Origin: a virus | Taxonomy: Duplodnaviria > Caudoviricetes | Virus record (IMG/VR): IMGVR_UViG_2690316366_000001 | Coordinates: 1 to 64,000 of that record | Direction: 5' to 3' (one strand) | Length of the DNA stretch: 64,000 bases | Part shown: positions 15,968 through 63,385 of the stretch, one piece after another | How positions within the stretch are numbered: position 1 is the stretch's first letter | How the letters are laid out: each line of letters starts with the position of its first letter | The notes under the pieces: generated by a model | Database searches by the model: none | What the model was told of the DNA's origin: nothing | Seen by the model: the letters and a program-made list of their open reading frames with translations, nothing else | Made by a program: the position numbers and the translations under genes

Positions 15968-17221
15968 TCAGACCTCCTTTTTCTTCGCCCCGAGGACGTG
16001 GACACGCTGCTCCGACCAGCGGCTTTCGAGGATCTGCATGGCACGCTTGGCCATCCGGAACTTGCTGACCTCCTTCGAATAGTGGTGCACCATCTGTGCG
16101 CTCATCCCGACGATCGCGCTGACTTCTTCCTCTGTGCAGCCGACCTCGAGGAGCATGTTGACGGCGTTCTTTCGGAGCCCATGGAAGACCAGCCGCTTCT
16201 CGCGGAACATGGCCATCGGCTTCTTGTCGAGCGCTCGGCCCCATGCCGTCTTGAAGCCCTCGTAGGACCAAGGTTCGCCGTCCGCCCGGAGGTGCAGCCG
16301 CAGCTGCGGCTTGTCCTTGTCGGTGGGGGCGGCGTCGATGAGGCCCCGGTACTCAGAATGGATCTGGACCGGGATCCGGTCTTGGGTCTTCTGCGCGATC
16401 AGCGGGATGCCGGTGTCGGTCGACTTCGGCCTGAGCATATTGATGACGTCGACCTTGCGCTGGCCCGTGAACAGGCCCGAGTAGACGGCAAGGTGTAGGT
16501 CGACCCGGGCGTGCTCGAAGAACACATCGAATGCCTCCGGCGGCCACGGAGAATACGTACCCTCGCTGTCGTAGCGCTCGGTGTGCTCGACCGGATTGTC
16601 CTTCCGGAAGCCGCGCGGGATGCCCCAGGATATGATCCGGCTCAGGGTCGATCGGAAGACACGGCCGGCCGATGGCGTATCGGCGAACCCCTTGTCGAGC
16701 ACCCCTTGGATCGTGGTGGCTTCGAGGGTCTCGACGGGGTCGTCGCCCCAGGCCACCTCGATCATCTCGATGTACCGGTCGTACTGCTCCCGGGTCCCTT
16801 CGGCGATGTCCTCGGTGTAGGCGCGGTGCTTCTTGAACTCAGCGATCAGGGCCCGGAAGGACCGCGTGTTGCCTGCCTGAACCCTGATGCCGATCGCCTC
16901 GGCCTTGTCCACGGCTTCCCAGAATGAACGATGGTCGGCTGGCGCGGGCAGGGGATGCCGGCGGCCGGTGACATCGGTGAAGAACCATGACCAGGCGCCC
17001 TCAGCGCTGACAGCGTCGAGCTTGTCCAGTTGGATGACGCGCTTGGCAAACTCTTCGGACAGCGGCTCTGCCGTGATCCGGACACGCGGCCACTCCCGCC
17101 CAGTTCGGCGAAATTTCGAGTAGTAATAATAGGTTCGTCCGTTCGGCTTCGATATCGAATGAACGTGTTCAGGAAGGGCCACGGTTCCCCCTCCCACTCT
17201 TGGCCTGCCGTTCTTTCGCAT
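15968..17221 (-). CDS. int: Prophage tyrosine integrase
   Basis: TGQRKVD, FHGLRKN, VGMSAQMVHHY; adjacent to att. Confidence 0.93.
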   Translation of the reverse strand: MRKNGRPRVGGGTVALPEHVHSISKPNGRTYYYYSKFRRTGREWPRVRITAEPLSEEFAKRVIQLDKLDAVSAEGAWSWFFTDVTGRRHPLPAPADHRSFWEAVDKAEAIGIRVQAGNTRSFRALIAEFKKHRAYTEDIAEGTREQYDRYIEMIEVAWGDDPVETLEATTIQGVLDKGFADTPSAGRVFRSTLSRIISWGIPRGFRKDNPVEHTERYDSEGTYSPWPPEAFDVFFEHARVDLHLAVYSGLFTGQRKVDVINMLRPKSTDTGIPLIAQKTQDRIPVQIHSEYRGLIDAAPTDKDKPQLRLHLRADGEPWSYEGFKTAWGRALDKKPMAMFREKRLVFHGLRKNAVNMLLEVGCTEEEVSAIVGMSAQMVHHYSKEVSKFRMAKRAMQILESRWSEQRVHVLGAKKKEV

Positions 17222-32796: not shown

Positions 32797-32857
32797 ATGA
32801 GATTATCAGTTCGGGCCGACCGCGGCTCAGCGTGGTCGCCGACTAGGAATCCCCCAA

Positions 32858-33481
32858 TTGGACGAACCACTGTTCACCAACATCCCCCGTGACCTGATCA
32901 CCGCTCCGTTTTTCCGACGAGACGGCGAGTTCGGAGAGCGGGAGGCCTGGATTTGGTTGATAGCAGCAGCGGCTGTTCGATGCGGTACAGGCCCGTTCGG
33001 ACGGCCTGTTCAACGGAGCGAAATCGATCTCGATCGCCGGAAGTTGGCGGAGCAGTGGGGGTGGACGTCGCGGCATCTCGACAGTTTTTTGAGTCGTTTG
33101 GCCGGCGTTGGCTTCATGGAGCGAGATGCAGACGTCATCAGAATTGTCGATTTCGACGCGATGACGGTGCCGGAAAGCGACGAGCCCGCCGACACAAGCA
33201 TCGAGCTATCAAGTCCATCGGAATTGCGCGCGATGGGCGTTCGTATGCGTAGCCGCGAGAGCTCGCACATCCCCGCCGCCGTTCGGCGTGAGGTCGTACT
33301 CCGTGACGGGTGGATCTGCCAGTATTGCTACGCAACTGACGGCCCGTTCCATTTCGACCATGTGTTCCCGCGCTCGCGCGGCGGAACTGACACAGCGGCA
33401 AATATCAAAATCGCCTGCGAAACCTGCAATCTGCGTAAGGGCGCTCGTACTCCGGAGGAGTGGCGGGCGGCAACACCATGA
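32858..33481 (+). CDS. HNH endonuclease fused to a replication-initiator-like wHTH
   Basis: EREAWIWLI...LAEQWGW N-terminus; RDGWICQYC...DHVFPRSRGG...NIKIACETCN. Confidence 0.85.
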   Translation: MDEPLFTNIPRDLITAPFFRRDGEFGEREAWIWLIAAAAVRCGTGPFGRPVQRSEIDLDRRKLAEQWGWTSRHLDSFLSRLAGVGFMERDADVIRIVDFDAMTVPESDEPADTSIELSSPSELRAMGVRMRSRESSHIPAAVRREVVLRDGWICQYCYATDGPFHFDHVFPRSRGGTDTAANIKIACETCNLRKGARTPEEWRAATP

Positions 33482-34371
33482 CCGAACCTCTGACTCCCAT
33501 CGACCTGGATCTCCGCGACTTCGGCTTCATGCCTCTGGAGGTCGTTCGGCTCCGCGATTCCGACCTTGCGGCGCTAGCGACAGGCGACGAATTCCGCGCC
33601 GCCGTGTTGCTGTGGTGCGCCGCGTGGCACCAAGTGCCTGCAGCTTCGCTTCCGGCCGACGACCGCCTTTTGGCCAAGTTGGCGGGCTTCGGCCGCGACC
33701 TGAAAGGGTGGAACGGCGTCAAGAAGGAAGCCTTGCGGGGCTTCTTGGAATGCTCGGATGGGCGCCTCTATCATCCTGTAATTGCTGACATTGCGATCGA
33801 AGCCGGCACAAAAAAGAAGAAGCAGTCGGGTAAGACGGCAAAGGCAACGGAGGCTCGGATACGGAAAGCCGAGGAGGCTCGTAACGCTAAACGTGGCGAT
33901 GATCGTGACGATGACCGTGACGGTCAACGTAACGATCACCAAGGGATAGGAAGAGAAAGGAATGGAGAGGAAGGGATAGACCCGCCCGGCCAAGCGGCCG
34001 AGCGCGATCAACAACTCCCTCTCGGTCAGGTCGCCCCTGCAAAGCGCCAAGCGACGAAGCGACGTCCCAATGCCAGAACGGCCATTGATCCCAACTGGCA
34101 TCTACCCGAGGAAGGCCGCGAATACGCGCGGAAGCGGGGCTGGCCGGAACGGCAGATCGATCTCCAGTTTGAGAAATTCAAGAATTTCCATGCGGCCAAG
34201 GGAAACTTGATGGCGGACTGGTTGGCCGCCTGGCGCACCTGGGTCGGTAACGATTACGACCGGCAACCGCCTCGAGGTGGTCCGCCGCAGGCACCGAGCC
34301 GTGCCGACACCGCGATCGAGGGCATGATGGCCGGTCTGACAGAGGGGGATTTCCATGCGCGATCTCGTTGA
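33478..34371 (+). CDS. DUF1376/YdaU-like replication initiator
   Basis: DLRDFGFMPL, LLWCAAWHQVPAASLP.DD, DGRLYHPV; C-terminal DWLAAWRTW; internal iterons. Confidence 0.85.
   Translation: MTEPLTPIDLDLRDFGFMPLEVVRLRDSDLAALATGDEFRAAVLLWCAAWHQVPAASLPADDRLLAKLAGFGRDLKGWNGVKKEALRGFLECSDGRLYHPVIADIAIEAGTKKKKQSGKTAKATEARIRKAEEARNAKRGDDRDDDRDGQRNDHQGIGRERNGEEGIDPPGQAAERDQQLPLGQVAPAKRQATKRRPNARTAIDPNWHLPEEGREYARKRGWPERQIDLQFEKFKNFHAAKGNLMADWLAAWRTWVGNDYDRQPPRGGPPQAPSRADTAIEGMMAGLTEGDFHARSR
33880..33979 (+). repeat. Putative phage ori: five 12-bp iterons plus purine tract
   Basis: CGTAACGCTAAA CGTGGCGATGAT CGTGACGATGAC CGTGACGGTCAA CGTAACGATCAC, then an A/G-rich strand, inside the initiator gene as in lambda O. 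Confidence 0.75.
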
Positions 34372-34927
34372 GCGACCGCGCGGAACGCCGCCGGCGCCGC
34401 CGTCATTTTCGGGTCTCGAGCCAGCCCTGCGCGCAATAGCCGCAGCCCGAGAAGCCACGGCTTTGGCCGATGAGCCGAGCGCTGAACTCCTGGAACAGGT
34501 CGATCGAGCGATCGAGGTGCACCGGAAGAACCGGGCCGTCTTGGAGCAAGCGTTGGCGCCGATACCCGCGGCTGGCACAGTGGTCTATCTGGGCCTGCTG
34601 TTGAAGGCATACCCGAATGCCGGCAGCCAAGACGCAGGCGTGTTCGGCCAGTTCCTGCGCGACGACGTCATGTCGCTGGATCCGTCGTTCGGCGCCGTTG
34701 AGATGGCGTGCCGCAGGTGGCGCCAGAAGTCCAGGTTCCTGCCGGCGATCGCCGAGATGATGGTGGAGGTGAGGGCGGCCCGCGACGAGCTCGCAGGGGT
34801 CGCCGAGTTTGTTGACCGCCTTCCGGCAATCCGCAACGCGATCGCTGCGAAGCTAGACCGCGCTGGCACGCCCGCTCTCAGGGGCAAACCAGACATGCGA
34901 CCTAACGTCAGGGATATCGCCTTGTGA
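34355..34927 (+). CDS. Replication accessory (helicase loader/inhibitor-like) protein
   Basis: Follows the initiator; ACRRWR...FLPAIAE motif; 3' end runs into repeat units. Confidence 0.65.
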   Translation: MRDLVERPRGTPPAPPSFSGLEPALRAIAAAREATALADEPSAELLEQVDRAIEVHRKNRAVLEQALAPIPAAGTVVYLGLLLKAYPNAGSQDAGVFGQFLRDDVMSLDPSFGAVEMACRRWRQKSRFLPAIAEMMVEVRAARDELAGVAEFVDRLPAIRNAIAAKLDRAGTPALRGKPDMRPNVRDIAL

Positions 34928-34941
34928 CCCAAGGCGGACCT
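34868..34941. repeat. Cassette-boundary repeat A (units 2 and 3)
   Basis: Two 28-29-bp units 46 bp apart, matching 37161-37189 and 37207-37234 (shared TGACCC-N4-CGGAC). Confidence 0.65.
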
Positions 34942-35172
34942 CAACTCGGCGGGCATCTCTTCGGCCTTGCGGATCGCGTGCATAAGGCGCAGGGTGCATC
35001 CATAATAAGTGCTGCCACAGCGCTCCTCCTATCAAGCGGTCGCCTTTAGATTTTTTGCAGCCTTAGCTTCGCCGTTCGTCCACACCAGACGATCCGGGTG
35101 CTCTTTTTCCGTCAGTCGTGATAGCGCGAAATCCATCGCGCGAACGATGGTTGTCCTTTTTGGAGGCCAGCG

Positions 35173-36054
35173 ATGCGAACTTCATTTCGATCTATTGTGC
35201 TGTTATTTGCGATTTTGATGACAGGTGATGTTGCCTACGCGGCTGGGTTCAAATGCACAGGCGCGCTTCAGAAAGACGAGAAGGTCGTATGCTCGGACGA
35301 GGACTTATCTCGTCTTGATGACCAGTTAAACTCTGTATACCAGGAGGCCCTTACTGCGAACTTTGAAACAGCTGACAAGGTACGCAGTGACCAACGCGCA
35401 TTTTTAGTTAGCCGCCGCGCCTGCGCCATCAACGCAGGCTGCATGCGCTCGCTATACAGCGCTCGCATAGACGAATTGAGTAGACCGCAGATCTTTGAGC
35501 CTGAAAAGAAGGCTCAGGATTCAACCCTCGCGGCTCAGGCCCAAAAACTTCTTAGCCTTGCGCTGAAGTGCCCAGCCAAGCCCGTTCAAACGGGAGGAGC
35601 GGCTTACAAAAAACTTGAATACGAATCCGTTGGAGATAGTGCGGTCCTCCGCATTAAAGGGATTGTGCATGACTTCCAAGGGTTCAAATTCCCCGGTCAA
35701 AAGATGATGAAAACGGACATCCCGATACCGGGCGTCAACGCCGCTAGCGACGATATGGGTCAGGTGAACTATTCTGCTGGCCTGAAATCAATCGCAGCTA
35801 TTGAAGCCTACAGGTGGGGAGAACTCCGTATTGCTTGCGCGCGAGGAAATAAGTGCATCAAATTCGACAGTGCGTGGGGGCAGGGCAACTGCAAGTCGTT
35901 CGATGGAGCCTCTTGTGGCAACGGAAGAGAATCCAGCGCAAAGGATCAGCTTGAGGAGATGACCCTCGAGGGAATATGTCCATCGCAGGTCAAGAATGCT
36001 GGCGATGCATTAAGCATACTCGTGTCAGCGGCGAAATATGGCCAGACGAAATAG
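35173..36054 (+). CDS. Secreted protein with LprI (DUF1311)-like domain
   Basis: Signal peptide; FKC...EKVVCSDEDLSRLDDQLNSVY...DQRAFL..RRAC...C...YSARIDEL. Confidence 0.8.
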   Translation: MRTSFRSIVLLFAILMTGDVAYAAGFKCTGALQKDEKVVCSDEDLSRLDDQLNSVYQEALTANFETADKVRSDQRAFLVSRRACAINAGCMRSLYSARIDELSRPQIFEPEKKAQDSTLAAQAQKLLSLALKCPAKPVQTGGAAYKKLEYESVGDSAVLRIKGIVHDFQGFKFPGQKMMKTDIPIPGVNAASDDMGQVNYSAGLKSIAAIEAYRWGELRIACARGNKCIKFDSAWGQGNCKSFDGASCGNGRESSAKDQLEEMTLEGICPSQVKNAGDALSILVSAAKYGQTK

Positions 36055-36071
36055 CGAATTGAGGACAGGCG

Positions 36072-36986
36072 ATGGTTAAGCAAACTTATATGCGTCTCGT
36101 TCGAGACGCGATGCCTCTCGTGGCAGCCATAGTGCTCATCTCAGCGGGACCCTCGGCGTACGCAGCGACGTTGAACTGTGTTCCATCGGTTGACGTTGAG
36201 ACGAAGTCGTGCGGCGTCGCCGACCATATCCAGACGTTCGCGCGCGTGACCAATAAGTGTTCCTGCGATGTAAACGTCTCTGTTCAACTACCCGGTGGCG
36301 GAGCGGCAGTGTTCACTGGCGTAAAACGCATGGGAGGTTCCCAACGTGAGATGATCGTGGCCTGCAGTCCCAAGAAAGGTGCGATTGGAGAGTACAAGTA
36401 CGATTTCGCTTGTCCTGAGGGCTCCACGGAATCGAAACCACGCGATCTTTCGAAGCAGCTGCAATCGGCTTCAACGGACGCTCAAGATGCGGCTGCAAAA
36501 AATCGGCAAGATCTCAGTCAACTTAACAAGCAGCACCAGCAAGCGGCCGACAGTGAAATTGCGCGGTACAAAGCAGGAGTGCGCAACTGGTGTGCTTCGC
36601 AGGCGCAGAACTGCGACGCAAAATGCGTCAGTAAGAGCCGCGGGTCACAGAATTACATGAGTGCCTGCGTAAATTTGTGCCGCACGCTTGTGGATGCTTG
36701 CGCATCGGATGATGGGAGCCAAAGCGCCCAGGCGGAAGCACGCATTCGCGCCGCAAATGATAACATGAAGGACGTAGTTGACCAATTGAACAGGCAATCG
36801 GCAGAACAGCGAGCCCGCGAGGAAATGGAGTCCTCCCTACAGGTACAGACCTTCGTCGGTGCGCTTTCGGGGATGGCGAGGGCCTATCAGCGGACCTCCG
36901 GGGGCAATTCTGGCGGCGGAGGGGCCGGAAGGGCCCCGCATGGCGGCGGCAGTGCTTGTGGGCCCGGCAGCGAAGCTTGTCGGTGA
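36072..36986 (+). CDS. Secreted Cys-rich protein
   Basis: Signal peptide (SAYA), multiple Cys, coiled coil, Gly-rich tail. Confidence 0.75.
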   Translation: MVKQTYMRLVRDAMPLVAAIVLISAGPSAYAATLNCVPSVDVETKSCGVADHIQTFARVTNKCSCDVNVSVQLPGGGAAVFTGVKRMGGSQREMIVACSPKKGAIGEYKYDFACPEGSTESKPRDLSKQLQSASTDAQDAAAKNRQDLSQLNKQHQQAADSEIARYKAGVRNWCASQAQNCDAKCVSKSRGSQNYMSACVNLCRTLVDACASDDGSQSAQAEARIRAANDNMKDVVDQLNRQSAEQRAREEMESSLQVQTFVGALSGMARAYQRTSGGNSGGGGAGRAPHGGGSACGPGSEACR

Positions 36987-37115
36987 TCATTCTTATCACG
37001 AAAGCAGTGATTGGGTACGCTCGTTCGGGTGCCTCAAAGAACTTGTTGGTAATCACGCACTCTAATATCGGAATATAGGCCGCCGCTGCTTTCCCAATCG
37101 CAGTCGACCCAAAGG

Positions 37116-37285
37116 AGGTCCGGCTCTGGCCCTTCTCGGAAGTGACGCGCTGGCTACTGAAGGTCCGGTGCCGGGAGTGAAGCGGACGTCGCGATCGCGC
37201 GTTCCGACTTCCGAGTTTGACCCGGAACGGACTTCGTCGCTGGAAAACTACCACTCGGTTTTCGGTCTGCCCCTGAAGCTGAAGT
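37116..37285. repeat. Cassette-boundary repeat B (units 1-2-3 plus a degenerate fourth)
   Basis: AGGTCCGGCTC-TGGCCC-TTCTCGGAAGT; AGGTCCGGTGC-CGGGAGT-GAAGCGGACGT; ACTTCCGAGTT-TGACCC-GGAACGGACTT. Confidence 0.75.
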
Positions 37286-37428
37286 GCACGTAGCCCAGAC
37301 GCGTGCTACGCCGACAAATGGGAAGCGTTCAAGGGTGCACTCTGCAGCTGCCAAGTCACGGCCGCATACGCTGGTGTTTAACGCGCCTGCGGCCTAAGCT
37401 GGCTTGGTGTCGGGGAAGGGATATCAAC

Positions 37429-38109
37429 ATGCGTTTCATTGCGCTTCTAATCGGTGTGTTGCTTTTGAGCAGCAATGCCTGTGCCCAAGAAAAATGTTTT
37501 GATGGTCCAACTCGGAAGCAGGAAAATAACTCTTGGCAAACATGGAACGCAGTAAACAACTGTGGCACATCGGTTACCGTTTACTACACGGTGCAGTCCG
37601 GCAGTACAAAAACCAGTAGCAACTCGGTTGTGCCTGCCTGTGAGAGTGCGCAGGTTGTTCAGACATTCAAATCTGACACGGTCGAGTTCGGAAACATAAT
37701 TGTTCATCCTGGCCCTGGAAAAAAATGCCGCCCCGACGAAAAAGCGAGTGATCAAGTCCCTCAAAAAAGCCAGCCGCAAAAGCAGCACGCCACTCCATCG
37801 AAAACCAGCGCGCCCGCTCTGCGTCCGCCTTCGACACCAAGCGCCCCTGACGCGGGCTCACCAGGACCAAGCACAAGCAGGGCTAACGATGCCTCCGCGA
37901 TGAAGCAATGCTCTTCTCAGTGCGTCCCTGTGTTGGCTAGTGCTAATGACTTATGCCGGACAACAGTTGTTGCCGATTGGTGGAAAGCGAAAGACAAATA
38001 TGGCGATAATTCCCCTCAAGCGTTGGCCGCTCAACAGCTAATTGGCCCGTGCGGAGCCCGTTCAATGGCTTTGGGGAATCAGTGCCTGCAAAGCTGTTTG
38101 GCTCGCTGA
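37429..38109 (+). CDS. Secreted Cys-rich protein with Pro/Ser linker
   Basis: Signal peptide MRFIALLIGVLLLSSNACA; two Cys-containing domains. Confidence 0.75.
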   Translation: MRFIALLIGVLLLSSNACAQEKCFDGPTRKQENNSWQTWNAVNNCGTSVTVYYTVQSGSTKTSSNSVVPACESAQVVQTFKSDTVEFGNIIVHPGPGKKCRPDEKASDQVPQKSQPQKQHATPSKTSAPALRPPSTPSAPDAGSPGPSTSRANDASAMKQCSSQCVPVLASANDLCRTTVVADWWKAKDKYGDNSPQALAAQQLIGPCGARSMALGNQCLQSCLAR

Positions 38110-38302
38110 ACGACATTTGCGATCGTACGCTTGGAAGACGGTGTCGGCTCATCCGTTGTACTTCTTCAAGGATTGGCGCGCATCGCGTTTGTTTGGACTG
38201 CGACTGCGGAAGCGCGATATGGCTGGAGTCTGTATCGCTAGTCATTCGAATGAACCCCAAAGCGAGGCACAGCACCTTCGGGCAACATATTGTTGGCGCG
38301 CC

Positions 38303-38330
38303 ATGTCCGAGTTTGGTCCTTAGCCGACAT
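38303..38330. repeat. Cassette-boundary repeat C (unit 1)
   Basis: ATGTCCGAGTT-TGGTCC-TTAGCCGACAT, similar to 37116-37143. Confidence 0.65.
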
Positions 38331-38376
38331 GACCAAGCAGGGTGGTGCGGACGTCGTTCGGCGGCGGAAGAGCGCG

Positions 38377-38847
38377 CTAACGGTTTGAGGCTGCCTTCAA
38401 GGCATCGCCGACGGCCTGGCGCAGCTGCCGATCGACGGTCTCGACATAGGTTGAATCCGTCGACTGGCCGGTAGCGCGGAACGTTCGCTGGATATCGCCC
38501 AGCTCTTCCTGCTCAGCGATCAGCTTGTCGACGGTTCGCTTCCCGCCGAACTCGGTCTGGTATTTGAGGAACGCCGATTTGCAAGCTTGCCTCACCGCCT
38601 GGTTCAGCGATGTGCGGTCGGTGCATTCCGCGAAGTAATTCAGCAGCGATCGCAGTTCGGGCTCGCTCATGCGAGCAATCTCGGTGCGAGCGGCGCGGAT
38701 CGTCTCCTCGGACGGCTGCGCGGCTTCAACCCGCGCGGCGGCGCCAAGACTGATCAGGATAATCGCGGCGAGGGTGTATCTCGAGGTTGAACCCGCGGCC
38801 GCCCTGGCGACGGCACCGCGAGCAGAACAGGCGCTGGCCAAGCTCAT
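38377..38847 (-). CDS. Probable exported protein (true start likely downstream of 38847)
   Basis: Hydrophobic LAAIILISLGAAA then a helical domain with two Cys; overlaps the Zn-ribbon ORF. Confidence 0.5.
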   Translation of the reverse strand: MSLASACSARGAVARAAAGSTSRYTLAAIILISLGAAARVEAAQPSEETIRAARTEIARMSEPELRSLLNYFAECTDRTSLNQAVRQACKSAFLKYQTEFGGKRTVDKLIAEQEELGDIQRTFRATGQSTDSTYVETVDRQLRQAVGDALKAASNR

Positions 38848-39059: not shown

Positions 39060-39794
39060 TTAGTTGAACTCGACGCCTACAATGCGATGGATGCTTTCAA
39101 CCAGGTCCGCGGCAAAACGCATCTGCCTGGCAGGGTTCAACTGCTCAAGGACCAGTTCCTTCTTCGAGAACGACACGAACTTCTTCGCATAGCCATCGAA
39201 TTCGCCCTCAACTTCCGTACGGATCTGCACGACAACGAAATGTCCGCGCCGATACGGCAGCTTTGGATTGACGTACAGCTTGTAGCCATCCTCGATGGCA
39301 GGCGACATTGAATCTCCGCTCTGCTCCACGCAGTAAGCCTCGGCGACAGCCTCGAGGCTCGGCGGGCGGAGAATCTCCCCAACCTTTTCCCCGTTCAAAA
39401 CGAACTTCCCTTCGCGCCCCCCAGCGGCTCGCCCGTAGATTGGTAGAGGAGACCGTGGGTATTTTATTTCTGATTGTTCGCTCGTAACGTTTGCGGGCAC
39501 AGGGTTTTCGTCAAGACCTCCTAAGGTCGCGGAAACTTTATGGTTACCGCTAGTTGCGTCGCCATCGCGCAGCCACTGCACCGTCACGCCGAGCGCGTTG
39601 GCCAGTTGCGACATCGTCTGACCGCGGGGCTGTTCCACCGGCTTCTGCTTGGCTGAGATCTTCTCGTAGCTGTAGATGCGCTCACGCATCACGGCGATCG
39701 CATCGGCATCATCGCCCACGATCAATCGAGCAAGTTGCGGGACCGAATAGCCCTTCGCTCGGCGAGCCGATTTTAGCCTGTGGTTCCAGAGCAT
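39060..39794 (-). CDS. cI: CI-like repressor (XRE HTH plus S24 peptidase)
   Basis: RLKSARRAKGYS...LANALGVTVQWLRDG; GDSMSP; YAKK; divergent from the cro-like gene. Confidence 0.9.
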   Translation of the reverse strand: MLWNHRLKSARRAKGYSVPQLARLIVGDDADAIAVMRERIYSYEKISAKQKPVEQPRGQTMSQLANALGVTVQWLRDGDATSGNHKVSATLGGLDENPVPANVTSEQSEIKYPRSPLPIYGRAAGGREGKFVLNGEKVGEILRPPSLEAVAEAYCVEQSGDSMSPAIEDGYKLYVNPKLPYRRGHFVVVQIRTEVEGEFDGYAKKFVSFSKKELVLEQLNPARQMRFAADLVESIHRIVGVEFN

Positions 39795-39894
39795 TGGGGT
39801 GGCGTTCAAGCTAACTCTCTCAGCCGAAGGGATTCTTTCCCCGCCAGCATAGGAACTGGAATTATTTTCGGAATGGAATTCGGACGCCTTGTGT

Positions 39895-39911
39895 CCGGAA
39901 TTAAATTCCAG
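39895..39911. promoter_or_regulatory. OR-like operator
   Basis: CCGGAATTAAATTCCAG, one arm mismatch to the PL palindrome; weaker copies at 39856-39884. Confidence 0.75.
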
Positions 39912-39926
39912 TAAATTCCAGAAGCC

Positions 39927-40187
39927 ATGACAGATGCCTCCGCAGACACTCCGGCCGCCGATCGTCCCAAGACGGTTTCCGAAATCATCAAGTACGCCGG
40001 CGGCGCCGCGGAGCTCGCGAAGGCCTCCGATGGGGCCGTCACGATCGAGGCCGTCTACAAATGGCCCAAGATCGGCATTCCGGATCGACATTGGGGCGTG
40101 ATCCGCGGGCTTTGCAACGTCACCGCTGAGGAACTCTACGCCGCCAACGTCGCCGCGCGGACGCCCGCCGACGCCGCCAGTCGGTGA
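39927..40187 (+). CDS. cro: Cro-like HTH protein
   Basis: IIKYAGGAAELA...AVYKW...IPDRHW; divergent from cI. Confidence 0.8.
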   Translation: MTDASADTPAADRPKTVSEIIKYAGGAAELAKASDGAVTIEAVYKWPKIGIPDRHWGVIRGLCNVTAEELYAANVAARTPADAASR

Positions 40188-40195
40188 GGGCGCCA

Positions 40196-40537
40196 TCATG
40201 ACACCCCGCCGATCACAGTCTTCAGCGTCGCGGCCATTCTCGACAACCTCGTTGCCTGGTCGATCAGTTCGGGTGTCCGGATCGCCCAGTGAGTTTCGGT
40301 CCTTCCCGAAGCGTGCAGCAACAATCGCTCCGATAGGCGGTCGAGCATGACCGCGGCACAGCTCCGGTGCACGAGCCCGGCATCGATCAGCATCTGCAGC
40401 ATCGCATCGAAGCATTCTTCCGCAATCAGCATTCGTGTTCCGGCCAGGGCGGCGCGCGCCCAGTCGTCATCTTTGTCAGGCGTCGGCAGCGCTGCCACGC
40501 TCAAATTTTGTTTGTGAAAGAAGGGAGCATTCATCAT
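40196..40537 (-). CDS. Possible hypothetical gene antisense to the PR operon
   Basis: Fills the gap between cro and the next gene; helical composition. Confidence 0.35.
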   Translation of the reverse strand: MMNAPFFHKQNLSVAALPTPDKDDDWARAALAGTRMLIAEECFDAMLQMLIDAGLVHRSCAAVMLDRLSERLLLHASGRTETHWAIRTPELIDQATRLSRMAATLKTVIGGVS

Positions 40538-60169: not shown

Positions 60170-60941
60170 TCAGAACAGCGAGCCTTGCGCGGGCGCCGGC
60201 GGCTCAGGTTTAAGACGTCCGAGGTGCTCGACCGTCTCGCCTATGATCTGGTCGCGATCATCATCGATCAGCAGCCAACCATCATCGCCGCCCGCTGGAT
60301 CGTAAACCACGAAGTCACCGCCCCAACGCTTGAAGATGCGTTGGGCCACCAGGCGCACGGCCGCGGGAACGTCCGTTGCGGCGTCGAACCCGGCCCGCGT
60401 CACGATCTTGAAGCCGGCCGCCGTCAGTATCTGTTCGGTCATGTTCGCTGGCCCTTCGCTCGTTCAAGGGCCGCTTGCACCTCCCAAGCCTGATAGATCG
60501 CCCCTCGGGCTTCCGTAAGCTTCTCCCGAACCTCTGGCCGCAATCGCTGGTCATTCGAGTCCATGACGCGCGTGAGGCCGTCCAGGAGCCGGTTATAGGT
60601 GTCCCAGTGGAAAGGGTGCTTGCGTGCTGTCACCGCCGCGCCCTCGCGGCTGCATGAACCTTGCGGGCGAGCTCGTCGCGGATCGCGCGGCCAACGTCGG
60701 AGTCCTCCATAGCGGTCAGCCAAAGGCGTTCATCGTCCTTGACGACGGCCGCCGCGGCTTCCTCCAGCGTTTTGCCGGCCATGAAGTGCGGCGCCACGCG
60801 GGCAATGAAGGTCTTTTCGTCGTCCGTCAGCTGACGGCCCGGAGCCGGCGGCGCAGCGAAGGCACCTCCGAGCGCTTCGAGGACGCCGGCGCGCGCGCCT
60901 TCAACGGGACCGGAATAGATTTCAGTCTTCTTGGCCGTCAT
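60170..60941 (-). CDS. Three small coupled genes (60630-60941, 60439-~60633, 60170-60442)
   Basis: GGAGG RBS and start/stop overlaps, lying between repeat units. Confidence 0.65.
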
Positions 60942-61024
60942 GGGTGAACCTCCGTTCAAATCGGTCGTAGCCGAGGGGGTGATGGGAAATCGATCGTAGC
61001 CGGGGAGGTGGGCGCAGCCGGGGG

Positions 61025-63385
61025 CTATCCCGGCGGCGGCCCATCGATCACGACGAGCGCTGTGTTGACCATGGTACCGGCGGCCTTGAATGACCCCGCG
61101 GGCAGAGGGCGGTATTCCACCGCCATCGGTTCGAGCTTCGCCCGCTGGCGCGGACCGTCGGCGCAGATCGCGACGAGCCGGCCACGAGGCTTCAAGAACT
61201 TCCGGCCATGCGTGATGTGCTTGATGTCGGCGCCGTTCTCAAATGGCGGGTTCATCAAGACAATGTCGAAACGCTCGGCCGGCGGGTCGAAGTCCAGGAA
61301 GTCGCCGCAGTGGACGAACGTGCCGGGGAACGCTGCGCGCAGGTGCTCCGAAAGTTTTGCGTTGATCTCGACCGCCACCACCTGCAGACCATCGGCGCAG
61401 TTGCGCGCAGCTTCGATCAGTGCGCCCGTTCCGGCGCTCGGCTCCAAGATGCGCTGCCCGGGCCGGATGTCGGCCGCCTCTGCCACGTCCGCGGCGAGTT
61501 CGCCCGATGTCGGGAAGAGCTGAGGCGCAACGACGACTTGCACGCCGCCGCCTTTCAGCATCGCCCGCATGGCCTCGAAACTATCCGCCGCCGTCGGCGC
61601 GGGCAAATCGGCCGTATCCGGGACCGGGGCGAGAACGCGCGGCCGAAGGTCCGCCGGCACGGGCTCGGCCTCGAACGGCACGCCAGCCAGTCCGCAGAAT
61701 TGCCGCCAGGCGGTCGCCTCGTCGTCGCACCAATCTGTAACGTGCTGGCCGAGGCCAACACGGAATTTGCCGAGTCCGGTGATGATCTCGGCGCCCGCGC
61801 GCTGCGCCTCCGCCTTGGCATCGCCGAGGCGCCGCGGCTCTTCCGCGGGCGCAACCGGGACCAGCGCCGCCACGGCCTCGGGCTCGTCCTGGGCCTCCCT
61901 CTCGACCGGTGCGCCGATGATCGCGCCGACCGTTGCCAGCATGGCGTCAAGATCAACCGCGGGCGGCGCGACATACTCGGCGACGAATTCGGCCGGCTCG
62001 GTTGGCTCCGGTGCTGGCGCGATCTTGGGCGGATCGACCCGCTTTGCATCCGTGATGTAAACTTGGACCTTCTTCCAGTATTCACCGGGCTTCGGCATCT
62101 GGCGGACGCGGTGCGCGCTGTGGGTCTCGGTCTCCTTCACTTTGCCGATATAGGGGAAATCCGAGAACTGCGGGCGCGCCTTCCATTCGGCCTCCGTCAT
62201 CTCGCGGAATCCTTCGCCGGGATAGTTGCAGATCGGCGGGAGCTTGGCGGCGGACTTCGCCGCGGCGACGTTCTCCGCGCTCGGCGGCCGATAATCGCTG
62301 ATGCTCTCCACGCTCCATTGCGCGCGCTTGGAGCGCGAGCCAGTCGGCGCGGTCGTCGTCATGCTGGAAACCGAACCGTTGGCGCCCTTGTTGACCTTCA
62401 GCACGGTAAGCCACTCGTCGCAGCGGCTCGTCTGCACCTGACCGCCGACCGCGAAGGCGAAGCGGTCCGCAAGCGGGTTGGCGGTCGCCTCCGCTCCGAT
62501 CTGCTCGGCCAGCATCGCCCGTTCATAGGCCAGCCGGTTGTCATAGTGCGCAATCCAGCGGGCGCGCCGAGGCCCGGAGCGCTCCAGGCTCGGAATCGCA
62601 ATCGCGGCGGCCTGCGCGGCGGTGATGACGTTCCCATCAATCGCCGACCAAAGGCCCATTGGCCCCTCATACTGCGAGGCCGGCGGGTCGCGCGGATAAT
62701 CGGCCAACGGAAACGACATCGACCAATAACCGCCGACATTGGCCACGGCCAAGCCGGCCGCGCGCTGCTTCTCGGGGTCATTGATGCCGGCGACGATTTG
62801 CCAGGCCTTCAGCTGCCTTTCGGTCTCCGCCTGCTGGCGCTCCACCTTCCGCTTGTCGGACTCAATGCCCTTGATGCGGCGATGACGCACCGCCGGCAGT
62901 TCCTTGTATTTCGCATGAGCGATTGCGCCGGCCGCGCGCGCAGTCCAATAATTCGAGGTGTCCCAGAGCCTGACCGCCTTGCGCATGTTGCTGTGTATGC
63001 GCTCTTGATCCTTGCGGGCACGCTTCTCGCTGTGGTGCCCAACCAAAATAGGCTGCCCCCCATAGAAGCGCTCGGCGATCTCATCGGACACTTTCCGCGC
63101 GCTCTCGGCTTCCGCCAAGCGCTTTTCGCTATACCCCTCGAAGCGGTCGGCGCGCTGCTCGGCGCGGTCGGTCAGCGCGGTGTCTTCGTCGCCGATCTCG
63201 CCACACATCTCAATCAGCAAGTCTTCGGCGCCGGGGCTCCAGGTTGGTTTGACGAACAGTTCTTGACGCGGCGCCCACTTGAAGCCGGCGGCCTTCACGC
63301 GCGCGTAATCCTCGGCGTCGAGCCGGTGCGCCGGATAAAGGCGCAGCTTGTTGTCATCGGGCGAATAGGTGGCGGAATGCTGCAT
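61025..63385 (-). CDS. DUF3560-like domain fused to an N6-adenine methyltransferase
   Basis: GQPILVGHHSEKRARKD; QLFPT, LEPSAGTG, MNPPF. Confidence 0.9.
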   Translation of the reverse strand: MQHSATYSPDDNKLRLYPAHRLDAEDYARVKAAGFKWAPRQELFVKPTWSPGAEDLLIEMCGEIGDEDTALTDRAEQRADRFEGYSEKRLAEAESARKVSDEIAERFYGGQPILVGHHSEKRARKDQERIHSNMRKAVRLWDTSNYWTARAAGAIAHAKYKELPAVRHRRIKGIESDKRKVERQQAETERQLKAWQIVAGINDPEKQRAAGLAVANVGGYWSMSFPLADYPRDPPASQYEGPMGLWSAIDGNVITAAQAAAIAIPSLERSGPRRARWIAHYDNRLAYERAMLAEQIGAEATANPLADRFAFAVGGQVQTSRCDEWLTVLKVNKGANGSVSSMTTTAPTGSRSKRAQWSVESISDYRPPSAENVAAAKSAAKLPPICNYPGEGFREMTEAEWKARPQFSDFPYIGKVKETETHSAHRVRQMPKPGEYWKKVQVYITDAKRVDPPKIAPAPEPTEPAEFVAEYVAPPAVDLDAMLATVGAIIGAPVEREAQDEPEAVAALVPVAPAEEPRRLGDAKAEAQRAGAEIITGLGKFRVGLGQHVTDWCDDEATAWRQFCGLAGVPFEAEPVPADLRPRVLAPVPDTADLPAPTAADSFEAMRAMLKGGGVQVVVAPQLFPTSGELAADVAEAADIRPGQRILEPSAGTGALIEAARNCADGLQVVAVEINAKLSEHLRAAFPGTFVHCGDFLDFDPPAERFDIVLMNPPFENGADIKHITHGRKFLKPRGRLVAICADGPRQRAKLEPMAVEYRPLPAGSFKAAGTMVNTALVVIDGPPPG

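Follow-up and report, generated by a model that had tools for sequence, protein, structure and literature searches.

We have analysed a stretch of 64,000 nucleotides of viral DNA (Duplodnaviria; Caudoviricetes), called the window below, which forms the first 64 kb of the 108,554-nt provirus record IMGVR_UViG_2690316366_000001. All positions are window coordinates, unless a locus is named; L001 to L005 denote related provirus loci from IMG/VR, L014 is a plasmid locus and L032 a metagenome locus. Analysis of the window reveals an inserted cargo island of about 3.5 kb, which is located in a swap-prone slot between two convergent phage genes and contains one palindromic element of about 110 nt between its genes. 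With a little more than even confidence, we read this island as prophage moron cargo that carries, and is bounded by, a host-type intergenic palindromic repeat, and that owes its gain or exchange to recombination at short repeats. An earlier note on this DNA had described the same stretch as gene cassettes delimited by arrays of 28-bp inverted-repeat sites with an 11-6-11 layout, as in an integron-like system. The observation in that note is partly confirmed and its interpretation partly supported.

A cargo island in a swap-prone slot

The island and the two phage genes between which it lies are as follows.

34865..38372, plus strand: inserted cargo island of about 3.5 kb, delimited by composition and by the empty alleles of relatives
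34355..34927, plus strand: gene A, last gene of the replication module, 190 codons; relatives keep residues 1-169/175
38377..38847, minus strand: gene B, for a secreted protein; lies downstream of the S24 repressor gene and converges on gene A

The GC content is 0.50-0.60 inside the island (from about 34950 to about 38350) and 0.60-0.69 in the flanks. With gene A as the query, five related proviruses were found in IMG/VR (five relatives among 28 pattern candidates), and the identity of gene A to L001-L004 is 78-87%. In all five relatives the gene A alignment ends at residue 167-175 of 190, and the last 21 codons of gene A in the window (34865-34927) come from the inserted DNA. The left boundary of the island therefore invades the 3' end of a phage gene, just as the earlier note had described.

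Three of the five relatives (L001, L002 and L003) have an empty allele in which the island is absent and 34850 is joined to 38373. In these loci, DNA matching 34845/34850 is followed within 6-20 nt by DNA matching 38373/38393, and the island is skipped between 8496 and 8503 of L001, 8496 and 8517 of L002, and 8491 and 8503 of L003. The empty-allele phages read ...GTCGCGCTAGCGG... at this place, where the stop codon of gene A (TAG) overlaps the stop codon of gene B (CTA, which is TAG on the opposite strand). As a check on its claim, the earlier note had proposed to look for an empty allele in which about 34880 is joined to about 38360, and the joints observed here lie within about 15-30 nt of those positions. 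The fourth relative, L004, has 1.16 kb of different DNA in the same slot, which contains one signal-peptide gene of 153 codons on the same strand, with a GC-rich hairpin after it. Because L001-L003 have an empty site and L004 has other DNA at this place, we conclude that 34865-38372 is a 3.5-kb insertion in the window. The earlier view of the stretch as inserted cassette DNA is thus borne out in that it is inserted cargo, of low GC content and absent from three of the five relatives, and the variable gene content predicted for the locus is seen in the breakpoints and in the different cargo of L004. The presence of neighbours that are adjacent in relatives (three of five, with overlapping stops) and the deviant base composition are both features by which phage morons are recognized.

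The slot is variable on both strands. Gene B, the product of which has a signal-peptide-like N-terminus, has a swapped 3' part in L005 (8503-9201, minus strand), where the diverged part is replaced by unrelated sequence.

Searches with gene B and with an alignment of gene A returned no contigs beyond the five relatives. Nothing was found in scans of genome contigs with gene B and with the alignment of X2 (one of the cargo proteins described below), of metagenome contigs with the X2 alignment, or of viral contigs with X2 and X3, and a phage collection gave no DNA match, neither near nor distant.

One palindromic element between the cargo genes

The three internal units of the earlier note (at 37116, 37161 and 37207, called U1, U2 and U3 here) together make up a single element, a second good copy of which is present on a plasmid.

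37116..37233, plus strand: well-preserved element copy, an imperfect palindrome of about 105-120 nt comprising the three internal units, seen in profile, folds and foreign copies
NZ_CP088290.1 66204-66321 (L014 5998-6115): plasmid copy of the element, with an ftsZ-like gene on one side and a nucleoside deaminase gene on the other

In a distant blastn search of the island against 72,556 plasmids, one match was obtained. It covers 37119-37236 and is located on plasmid pBs162S2b of Bradyrhizobium septentrionale (78% over 118 nt, E 2e-16). A two-block pattern derived from the plasmid alignment gave 19 metagenome matches, one of which is a true copy (L032, 87% identical to the plasmid copy) and the remaining 18 are chance. 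These three good copies have about 100-105 well-aligned bases in common, including CGCGCTGG, which is unchanged in all of them, while their flanks are unrelated. The edges of the element fade gradually, and no target duplication is definable around the three copies. The reading frame of the element (...LFGSAALAIESPVSGVKRTSRLRVPTSEFDP...) is also embedded in six clusters of small open reading frames (ORFs; E up to 2.7e-4) with unrelated N- and C-termini. Two of the six carry names of Bradyrhizobium sp. strains, and a seventh reaches only E 0.84. These small ORFs are mis-called. Element patterns gave no match in viral contigs, and later two, both chance, and the six related proviruses (671,797 nt) contain no further good copy. 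The element is apparently low-copy, with one plasmid of 72,556, one true metagenome match and a few ORFs. It has no match in Rfam at E up to 1, the published consensus sequences of Br-REP1 and Br-REP2 are absent from the window at up to three mismatches, and a literature search on miniature inverted-repeat transposable elements (MITEs) of Bradyrhizobium listed nothing relevant.

The consensus fold consists of an outer stem, CGGAAGT/ACTTCCG, which joins unit 1 to unit 3 (with one compensatory change), and two hairpins between them. It has 36 pairs, two of them with a compensatory change, from three sequences. A manual count shows that U1 matches the reverse complement of U3 at 19/28 positions. 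Read on its minus strand, the window copy reaches 21 bits with the covariance model. The dispersed copies, the unrelated flanks and the intergenic position of the plasmid copy are those of a REP/ERIC/RIME-like repeat. The "array" is one low-copy, palindromic, dispersed intergenic element, of a kind of repeat known in Bradyrhizobium and other bacteria.

The surroundings of the foreign copies have features of their own. An IS110-family transposase is located about 3 kb from the plasmid copy. The segment L032 1637-2181, which adjoins the metagenome copy, contains overlapping ORFs on both strands with repeated peptide-like strings, and this suggests a further tandem or inverted DNA repeat there.

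The 28-nt units and their geometry

The unit strings of the earlier note, i.e. the three internal ones, 34868 and 34914 on the left and 38303 on the right, are present in the sequence. Their supposed Xer-like 11-6-11 geometry fails, as only one of the six units reaches 8/11 arm complementarity. Scored in an 11-N(6-8)-11 frame, the arms are complementary at 5/11 positions in the unit at 37116, 8/11 at 37161, 5/11 at 37207, 3-6/11 at 34868, 4-5/11 at 34914 and 3-7/11 at 38302/38303. Sites with at least 8/11 number 1108 in the 108,554-nt genome (10.2/kb) and 31 in 34840-38400 (8.7/kb). An Xer/dif-type site (28 bp, 11-6-11) was rejected on this arm geometry (3-8/11, with a background of 10.2/kb), which was the feature compared. 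When the non-coding stretches (three from the island, two from L004) were set against one another by gapped local alignment, none of the 20 comparisons exceeded z 3, the best being 2.7. The motif CGGAC/GTCCG is seen seven times in the non-coding DNA of the island, where 3.4 are expected (P 0.059), an enrichment that is not significant.

The units at 37116, 37161 and 37207 had been presented as three equivalent sites with a crossover in U2. Our analysis shows instead that they are parts of one palindrome of about 110 nt in which U1 is paired with U3, and the crossover in U2 is not supported. What stands of the internal array is one conserved element; an array of recombination sites does not.

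Short repeats at the joints

34859..34867, plus strand: left-junction 9-mer CGCGCTGGC; the empty alleles read CGCGCTAGC here, with the overlapping stops of gene A and gene B
37146..37154, plus strand: internal 9-mer CGCGCTGGC, the same as at the left junction, inside the element between X2 and X3
38373..38381, plus strand: right-junction 9-mer CGCGCTAAC; CGGAAGAG precedes it, as CGGAAGTGA precedes the internal copy

A short direct repeat, CGCGCT[G/A][G/A]C, is present at both ends of the island and once more inside the internal element. Each joint 9-mer matches the empty-site CGCGCTAGC at 8/9 positions. On both strands of the genome, CGCGCT occurs 251 times and CGCGCTGGC 11 times, and the combination CGGAAG-N2-3-CGCGCT occurs just twice, at 37137 and 38365. 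The joints of the L004 cargo differ from those of the window, and the left one is without CGCGCT.

Element-like fragments at the cargo boundaries

Four stretches of the island resemble parts of the element; "core" denotes the internal CGCGCT 9-mer.

34868..34945, plus strand: left-boundary stretch, a weak colinear look-alike of the core-to-U3 part; aligns with the left boundary of the L004 cargo
38267..38330, minus strand: right-boundary weak partial copy, model positions 4-58, from the profile
38339..38355, plus strand: central-arm look-alike, 14/17 to GGGGTGAAGCGGACGTC; a matching piece stands before the right junction of the L004 cargo
37504..37524, minus strand: inverted U3-arm copy of 21 nt in the X3 coding region, 86% complementary to 37202-37222

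In the unit register, U2 matches the DNA at 34868 at 16/28 positions, and U3 matches that at 34914 at 16/28 and that at 38303 at 19/28. The null for 28-mer matches has a mean of 10.7 and a 99th percentile of 15, and non-corresponding unit pairs match at the null mean. U2 and U3 at a spacing of 46 nt reach at least 32/56 at four non-self places in 217 kb (both strands), one of which is 34865. Matches to U3 of at least 19/28 occur at two non-self places genome-wide, and both are in the island, at 38300 (plus strand) and at 37522 (minus strand, inside X3). U1-like 28-mers of at least 18/28 occur at six other places. The right-boundary DNA is also U3-like on the plus strand (38294-38329, with the unit at 38303).

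A profile built from the three good copies finds the right boundary in a 624-nt search with E 6.5e-4 (inverted, positions 4-58) and 0.003 (direct, positions 82-120); in a larger search the same two matches are weak, with E 0.56 and 3.7. The left boundary was not found by the nhmmer profile, and neither boundary of the island was found by the cmsearch covariance model. Among the 251 CGCGCT sites compared with the two foreign copies in an anchored control, the left joint takes 13th place and the right joint 223rd. The best non-self profile matches in the six proviruses are G005 61337-61406 (E 0.13), the left boundary of the L004 (G004) cargo (E 0.69, model positions 48-120) and the right boundary of the island (E 1.0). 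On the covariance model, a degenerate plasmid copy (E 0.028) and the L004 piece (E 0.1) rank just after one unrelated hairpin. With up to three mismatches, the central-arm 17-mer has five non-self matches in six genomes, two of which are just inside the right joints of two cargoes. The left boundaries of these two cargoes align with each other and are colinear with the element.

No one boundary piece is convincing by itself. Taken together, the weak matches cluster in about 1.7 kb of non-coding cargo DNA, which by our own arithmetic from these counts is unlikely by chance. The boundary units at 34868, 34914 and 38303 thus hold up in so far as they exceed the null in the unit register and cluster at cargo edges; they do not in so far as the covariance model misses them and the profile misses the left one. 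A right boundary made of U1 and a partial U2 in colinear order is not supported, the right flank being 223rd of 251 against the foreign copies. The profile scan of the genome and its relatives, a check proposed with the earlier claim, shows element-like sequence recurring at cargo boundaries in two phages, although weakly.

The inverted U3-arm copy at 37504-37524 could pair across the X3 leader and start codon. The G005 match at 61337-61406 lies in a segment of about 1.4 kb (G005 60662-62051), part of which is also found in G003 and G004, while G000-G002 lack it; this match may lie in coding DNA and be chance.

Recombinases

857-2182: tyrosine recombinase 1; homologue only in G005
15968-17221: tyrosine recombinase 2; present in G002, G004 and G005 near one end, not in G001 and G003

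The island contains no recombinase gene, and the 108-kb record contains no serine recombinase (resolvase) and no Y1 transposase. Both tyrosine recombinases, 17-33 kb away from the island, give no match to the integron-integrase model in NCBIfam. Neither of them tracks the cargo, because the second is present in the empty-site G002 and the first only in G005. The co-occurring recombinase that the earlier note had expected was not found among the related proviruses, either as a dedicated enzyme or as one that co-varies with the cargo. One small public DNA run (0.11 of sampled words) gave three short contigs in 34911-35988 with no joints, and is uninformative on circles.

Cargo genes

35173..36054, plus strand: X1, secreted, with an N-terminal LprI/DUF1311 domain (PF07007, E 1.6e-6) and a C-terminal domain of no known kind
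36072..36986, plus strand: X2, secreted Cys-rich protein of a small family, with a small beta-sandwich and long helices
37429..38109, plus strand: X3, secreted; the predicted structure has a six-strand beta-sandwich at the N-terminus, then a Pro/Ser-rich linker, and a Cys-rich helical hairpin at the C-terminus

X2 begins 17 nt after X1, and homologues of X1 and of X2 match contigs of identical size (4579 and 5804 nt), which suggests that X1-X2 is a conserved pair. The cargo genes are preceded by long 5' leaders of 196-308 nt. The beta-sandwich of X3 is predicted with a pLDDT (predicted local distance difference test) of 90-98, and the X2 model is poor (pLDDT 60). A structure search with the X3 model gave generic Ig-like beta-sandwich matches, none with E of 0.001 or below, and a protein atlas offered no usable lead on cargo function. 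X2 and X3 have a common plan of signal peptide, small beta-sandwich and Cys-rich helical region, with no pairwise similarity by BLASTP. One database protein (P0007) has an X3-like N-terminus fused to an X2-like C-terminus. X2 and X3, together with proteins P0007 and P0022-P0045, look like a modular family of exported proteins with domain shuffling. The N-terminal domain of X3 has 25 other representatives with varied C-termini.

Phage neighbourhood and host

32858-33481, plus strand: HNH endonuclease gene, in phage early DNA
33460-34371, plus strand: DUF1376-type replication protein, in phage early DNA
39060-40415, minus strand: S24-peptidase repressor gene

A small ORF is located on the minus strand beside gene B and the S24-peptidase repressor gene, and to the right of the repressor lie genes for GcrA, a LexA-like protein, methyltransferases and a DnaN homologue. 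The region surrounding the island is prophage early DNA. Because the X2 protein is also on record from an 8.9-Mb contig and the single named X2 homologue comes from Bradyrhizobium, the host is taken to be a Bradyrhizobium-like bacterium.

A second variable segment is present 0.7 kb to the left of the island (32807-34157). It has no blastn match in L001-L004, both of its flanks align, and the HNH endonuclease gene lies within it, as does most of the DUF1376 replication gene. From where the tyrosine recombinase genes lie, the first 16 kb of the window may belong to another element or to flanking host DNA and not to this phage.

How the cargo may have been acquired

In the explanation that we favour, a lower-GC block of about 3.5 kb occupies the very point at which, in related phages, two convergent genes overlap by their stops, and it brings the X1-X2 pair and a separate X3 gene, all for exported proteins. 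Cargo entry and later exchange would proceed by host recombination at short repeated sequences. Substrates could be the microhomology found at the joints, CGCGCT[A/G][A/G]C, together with the element-like flanks that the cargoes of two phages have in common, and a dedicated site-specific recombinase would be unnecessary. The boundary units would be worn fragments of element-type sequence. By analogy with other repeats of its kind, we infer that the element most likely acts as a DNA or RNA hairpin, i.e. a terminator, an insulator or an mRNA-end stabiliser between transcription units.

Several observations weigh against this explanation. Direct repeats at the joints with an identical 9-mer in the element are the expected trace of single-crossover integration of a circle at a core site. 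Fragments of a low-copy element in two independent cargoes are not simply what random host DNA would give. On the plasmid, one ftsZ-like gene lies between two directly oriented copies of the element, the good one and a degenerate one (L014 4306-4432; cmsearch E 0.028, nhmmer E 0.32). Single-sequence folds of the element are no better than shuffles (z -1.5, -1.1 and -0.5), and consensus scans give three promoter-like and five terminator-like sites in the cargo, with 1.7 and 4.1 in shuffles.

Some of these observations would be natural in a site-specific cassette system, in which the element is attC-like and circles integrate at CGCGCT[G/A][G/A]C between U1 and U2 by means of a host recombinase, so that X1-X2 and then X3 would come to lie in tandem at a core-like phage sequence. 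The core 9-mer is found at the left joint, in the element and, with 7/9 positions, at the right joint, two of these three sites being preceded by CGGAAG; however, the joints of the L004 cargo differ, and the left one lacks CGCGCT. Similarly, the left boundary mimics the order and spacing of core, U2 and U3 (66 versus 72 nt from CGCGCT to TGACCC), but it escapes both the profile and the covariance searches, and the right boundary is not colinear with U1 and the core (223rd of 251), its best match being inverted. In a second phage the slot is occupied by other cargo, edged on either side by element-like pieces, and a plasmid gene is bracketed by two direct-orientation copies. The size and imperfect palindromy of the element also resemble those of chromosomal-integron attC repeats. 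Nevertheless, an integron-type integrase is absent from the 108-kb record and no recombinase co-varies with the cargo; leaders of 196-308 nt are not those of compact cassettes; a single tiny sequencing run gave no circle or excision joint; and just three good DNA copies of the element are known. We therefore consider tandem integration of circles to be distinctly unlikely. The proposal that the element is the recombination site of an undescribed Bradyrhizobium gene-cassette system, with a recombinase acting in trans and strand exchange at CGCGCT[G/A][G/A]C, appears to us a long shot. If it is true, such a system would move exported-protein genes, single or paired, among the chromosome, plasmids and a prophage hot spot, and it would extend integron-like systems to a bacterial class from which integrons are not known, with phages carrying the cassettes.

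It is also possible, though unlikely, that the island is an ordinary moron in which only the internal element is real, as a passenger repeat that travelled with the cargo or jumped into it, that the island entered by plain illegitimate recombination and that the boundary units and CGCGCT coincidences are chance in GC-rich DNA. The 251 occurrences of CGCGCT on the two genome strands, the density of palindromes of the claimed quality (10 per kb), the U1-like 28-mers at six other places (at least 18/28), the chance level of the non-coding local alignments, the E values of 0.4-4 for boundary pieces in full profile searches and the failure of the covariance model at both boundaries are all in line with it. 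What such an explanation leaves aside is the position of the matches. Over six genomes and both strands (1.34 Mb), the profile has two of its three best non-self matches within the roughly 1.7 kb of non-coding DNA in the cargoes of two phages, two of the five central-arm 17-mer matches are at two right joints, and both non-self U3 matches of at least 19/28 are inside the island; each such clustering has, by our own arithmetic, a chance probability well below 0.01. Transposition is very improbable; here a transposase provided in trans would have inserted the island, or the element in the manner of a MITE, and duplicated a 9-bp target, CGCGCTAGC. A 9-bp imperfect direct repeat does surround the island, each copy 8/9 to the empty site, but it flanks the whole island and not the element. 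The element has inverted ends (U1 versus the reverse complement of U3, 19/28), whereas the island ends (34868..., ...38372) are without terminal inverted repeats, and the fading edges of the three element copies leave no target duplication definable. An IS110-family transposase is present 3 kb from the plasmid copy, but the island itself encodes no transposase, and a Y1 transposase is missing from the phage.

Whichever route was taken, the analysis locates to the base a swap-prone slot in a family of large Bradyrhizobium prophages, filled by exported proteins that may change the lysogen envelope, and it uncovers a palindromic element, conserved and about 110 nt long, without a match in Rfam or among the published Br-REP consensus sequences. 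If this element marks gene-content breakpoints genome-wide, it would provide a handle on accessory-gene movement in a genus of importance to nitrogen fixation; if it does not, the locus is one more ordinary moron locus.

Comparison with known systems

Phage morons are extra promoter-gene-terminator units located between conserved genes of lambdoid and other temperate phages. The island resembles them in that its genes are present in one phage and missing between the same neighbours in relatives, in its deviant base composition, in its exported products and in the position of the slot beside the repressor and early region. It differs in that the slot is the exact overlap of two convergent stops, that the cargo of two phages is edged by one repeat family, and that promoters and terminators of its own are not above shuffles.

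The attC sites of chromosomal integrons, e.g. the Vibrio repeats, are about 120 nt in length. The element is similarly an imperfect palindrome of about 100-120 nt between genes of the same orientation and is conserved among its copies, and the cassette-like gene units vary between relatives. However, no IntI, attI or Pc was found in the 108-kb record, only two or three units are present, the leaders are long and the right boundary is not colinear. There is one good site between X2 and X3, with weak copies at the boundaries.

Intergenic mosaic elements of the ERIC/RIME type are about 100-130 nt in length. The element is like them in size, imperfect palindromy, intergenic position, low-to-moderate copy number and unrelated flanks, a likeness drawn from these properties, and it differs in belonging to another host group. 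From Br-REP1 and Br-REP2 it differs in its greater length (about 110 nt) and in being apparently low-copy, the comparison being by their consensus sequences; it may belong to one of the GTAG/CGTC families. With the published palindromic repeats of Bradyrhizobium in general, the element has in common an intergenic position (also between convergent genes), a predicted composite of three stem-loops, restriction to Bradyrhizobium and variable abundance. Proposed roles of such repeats are in termination, mRNA stability and genome plasticity.

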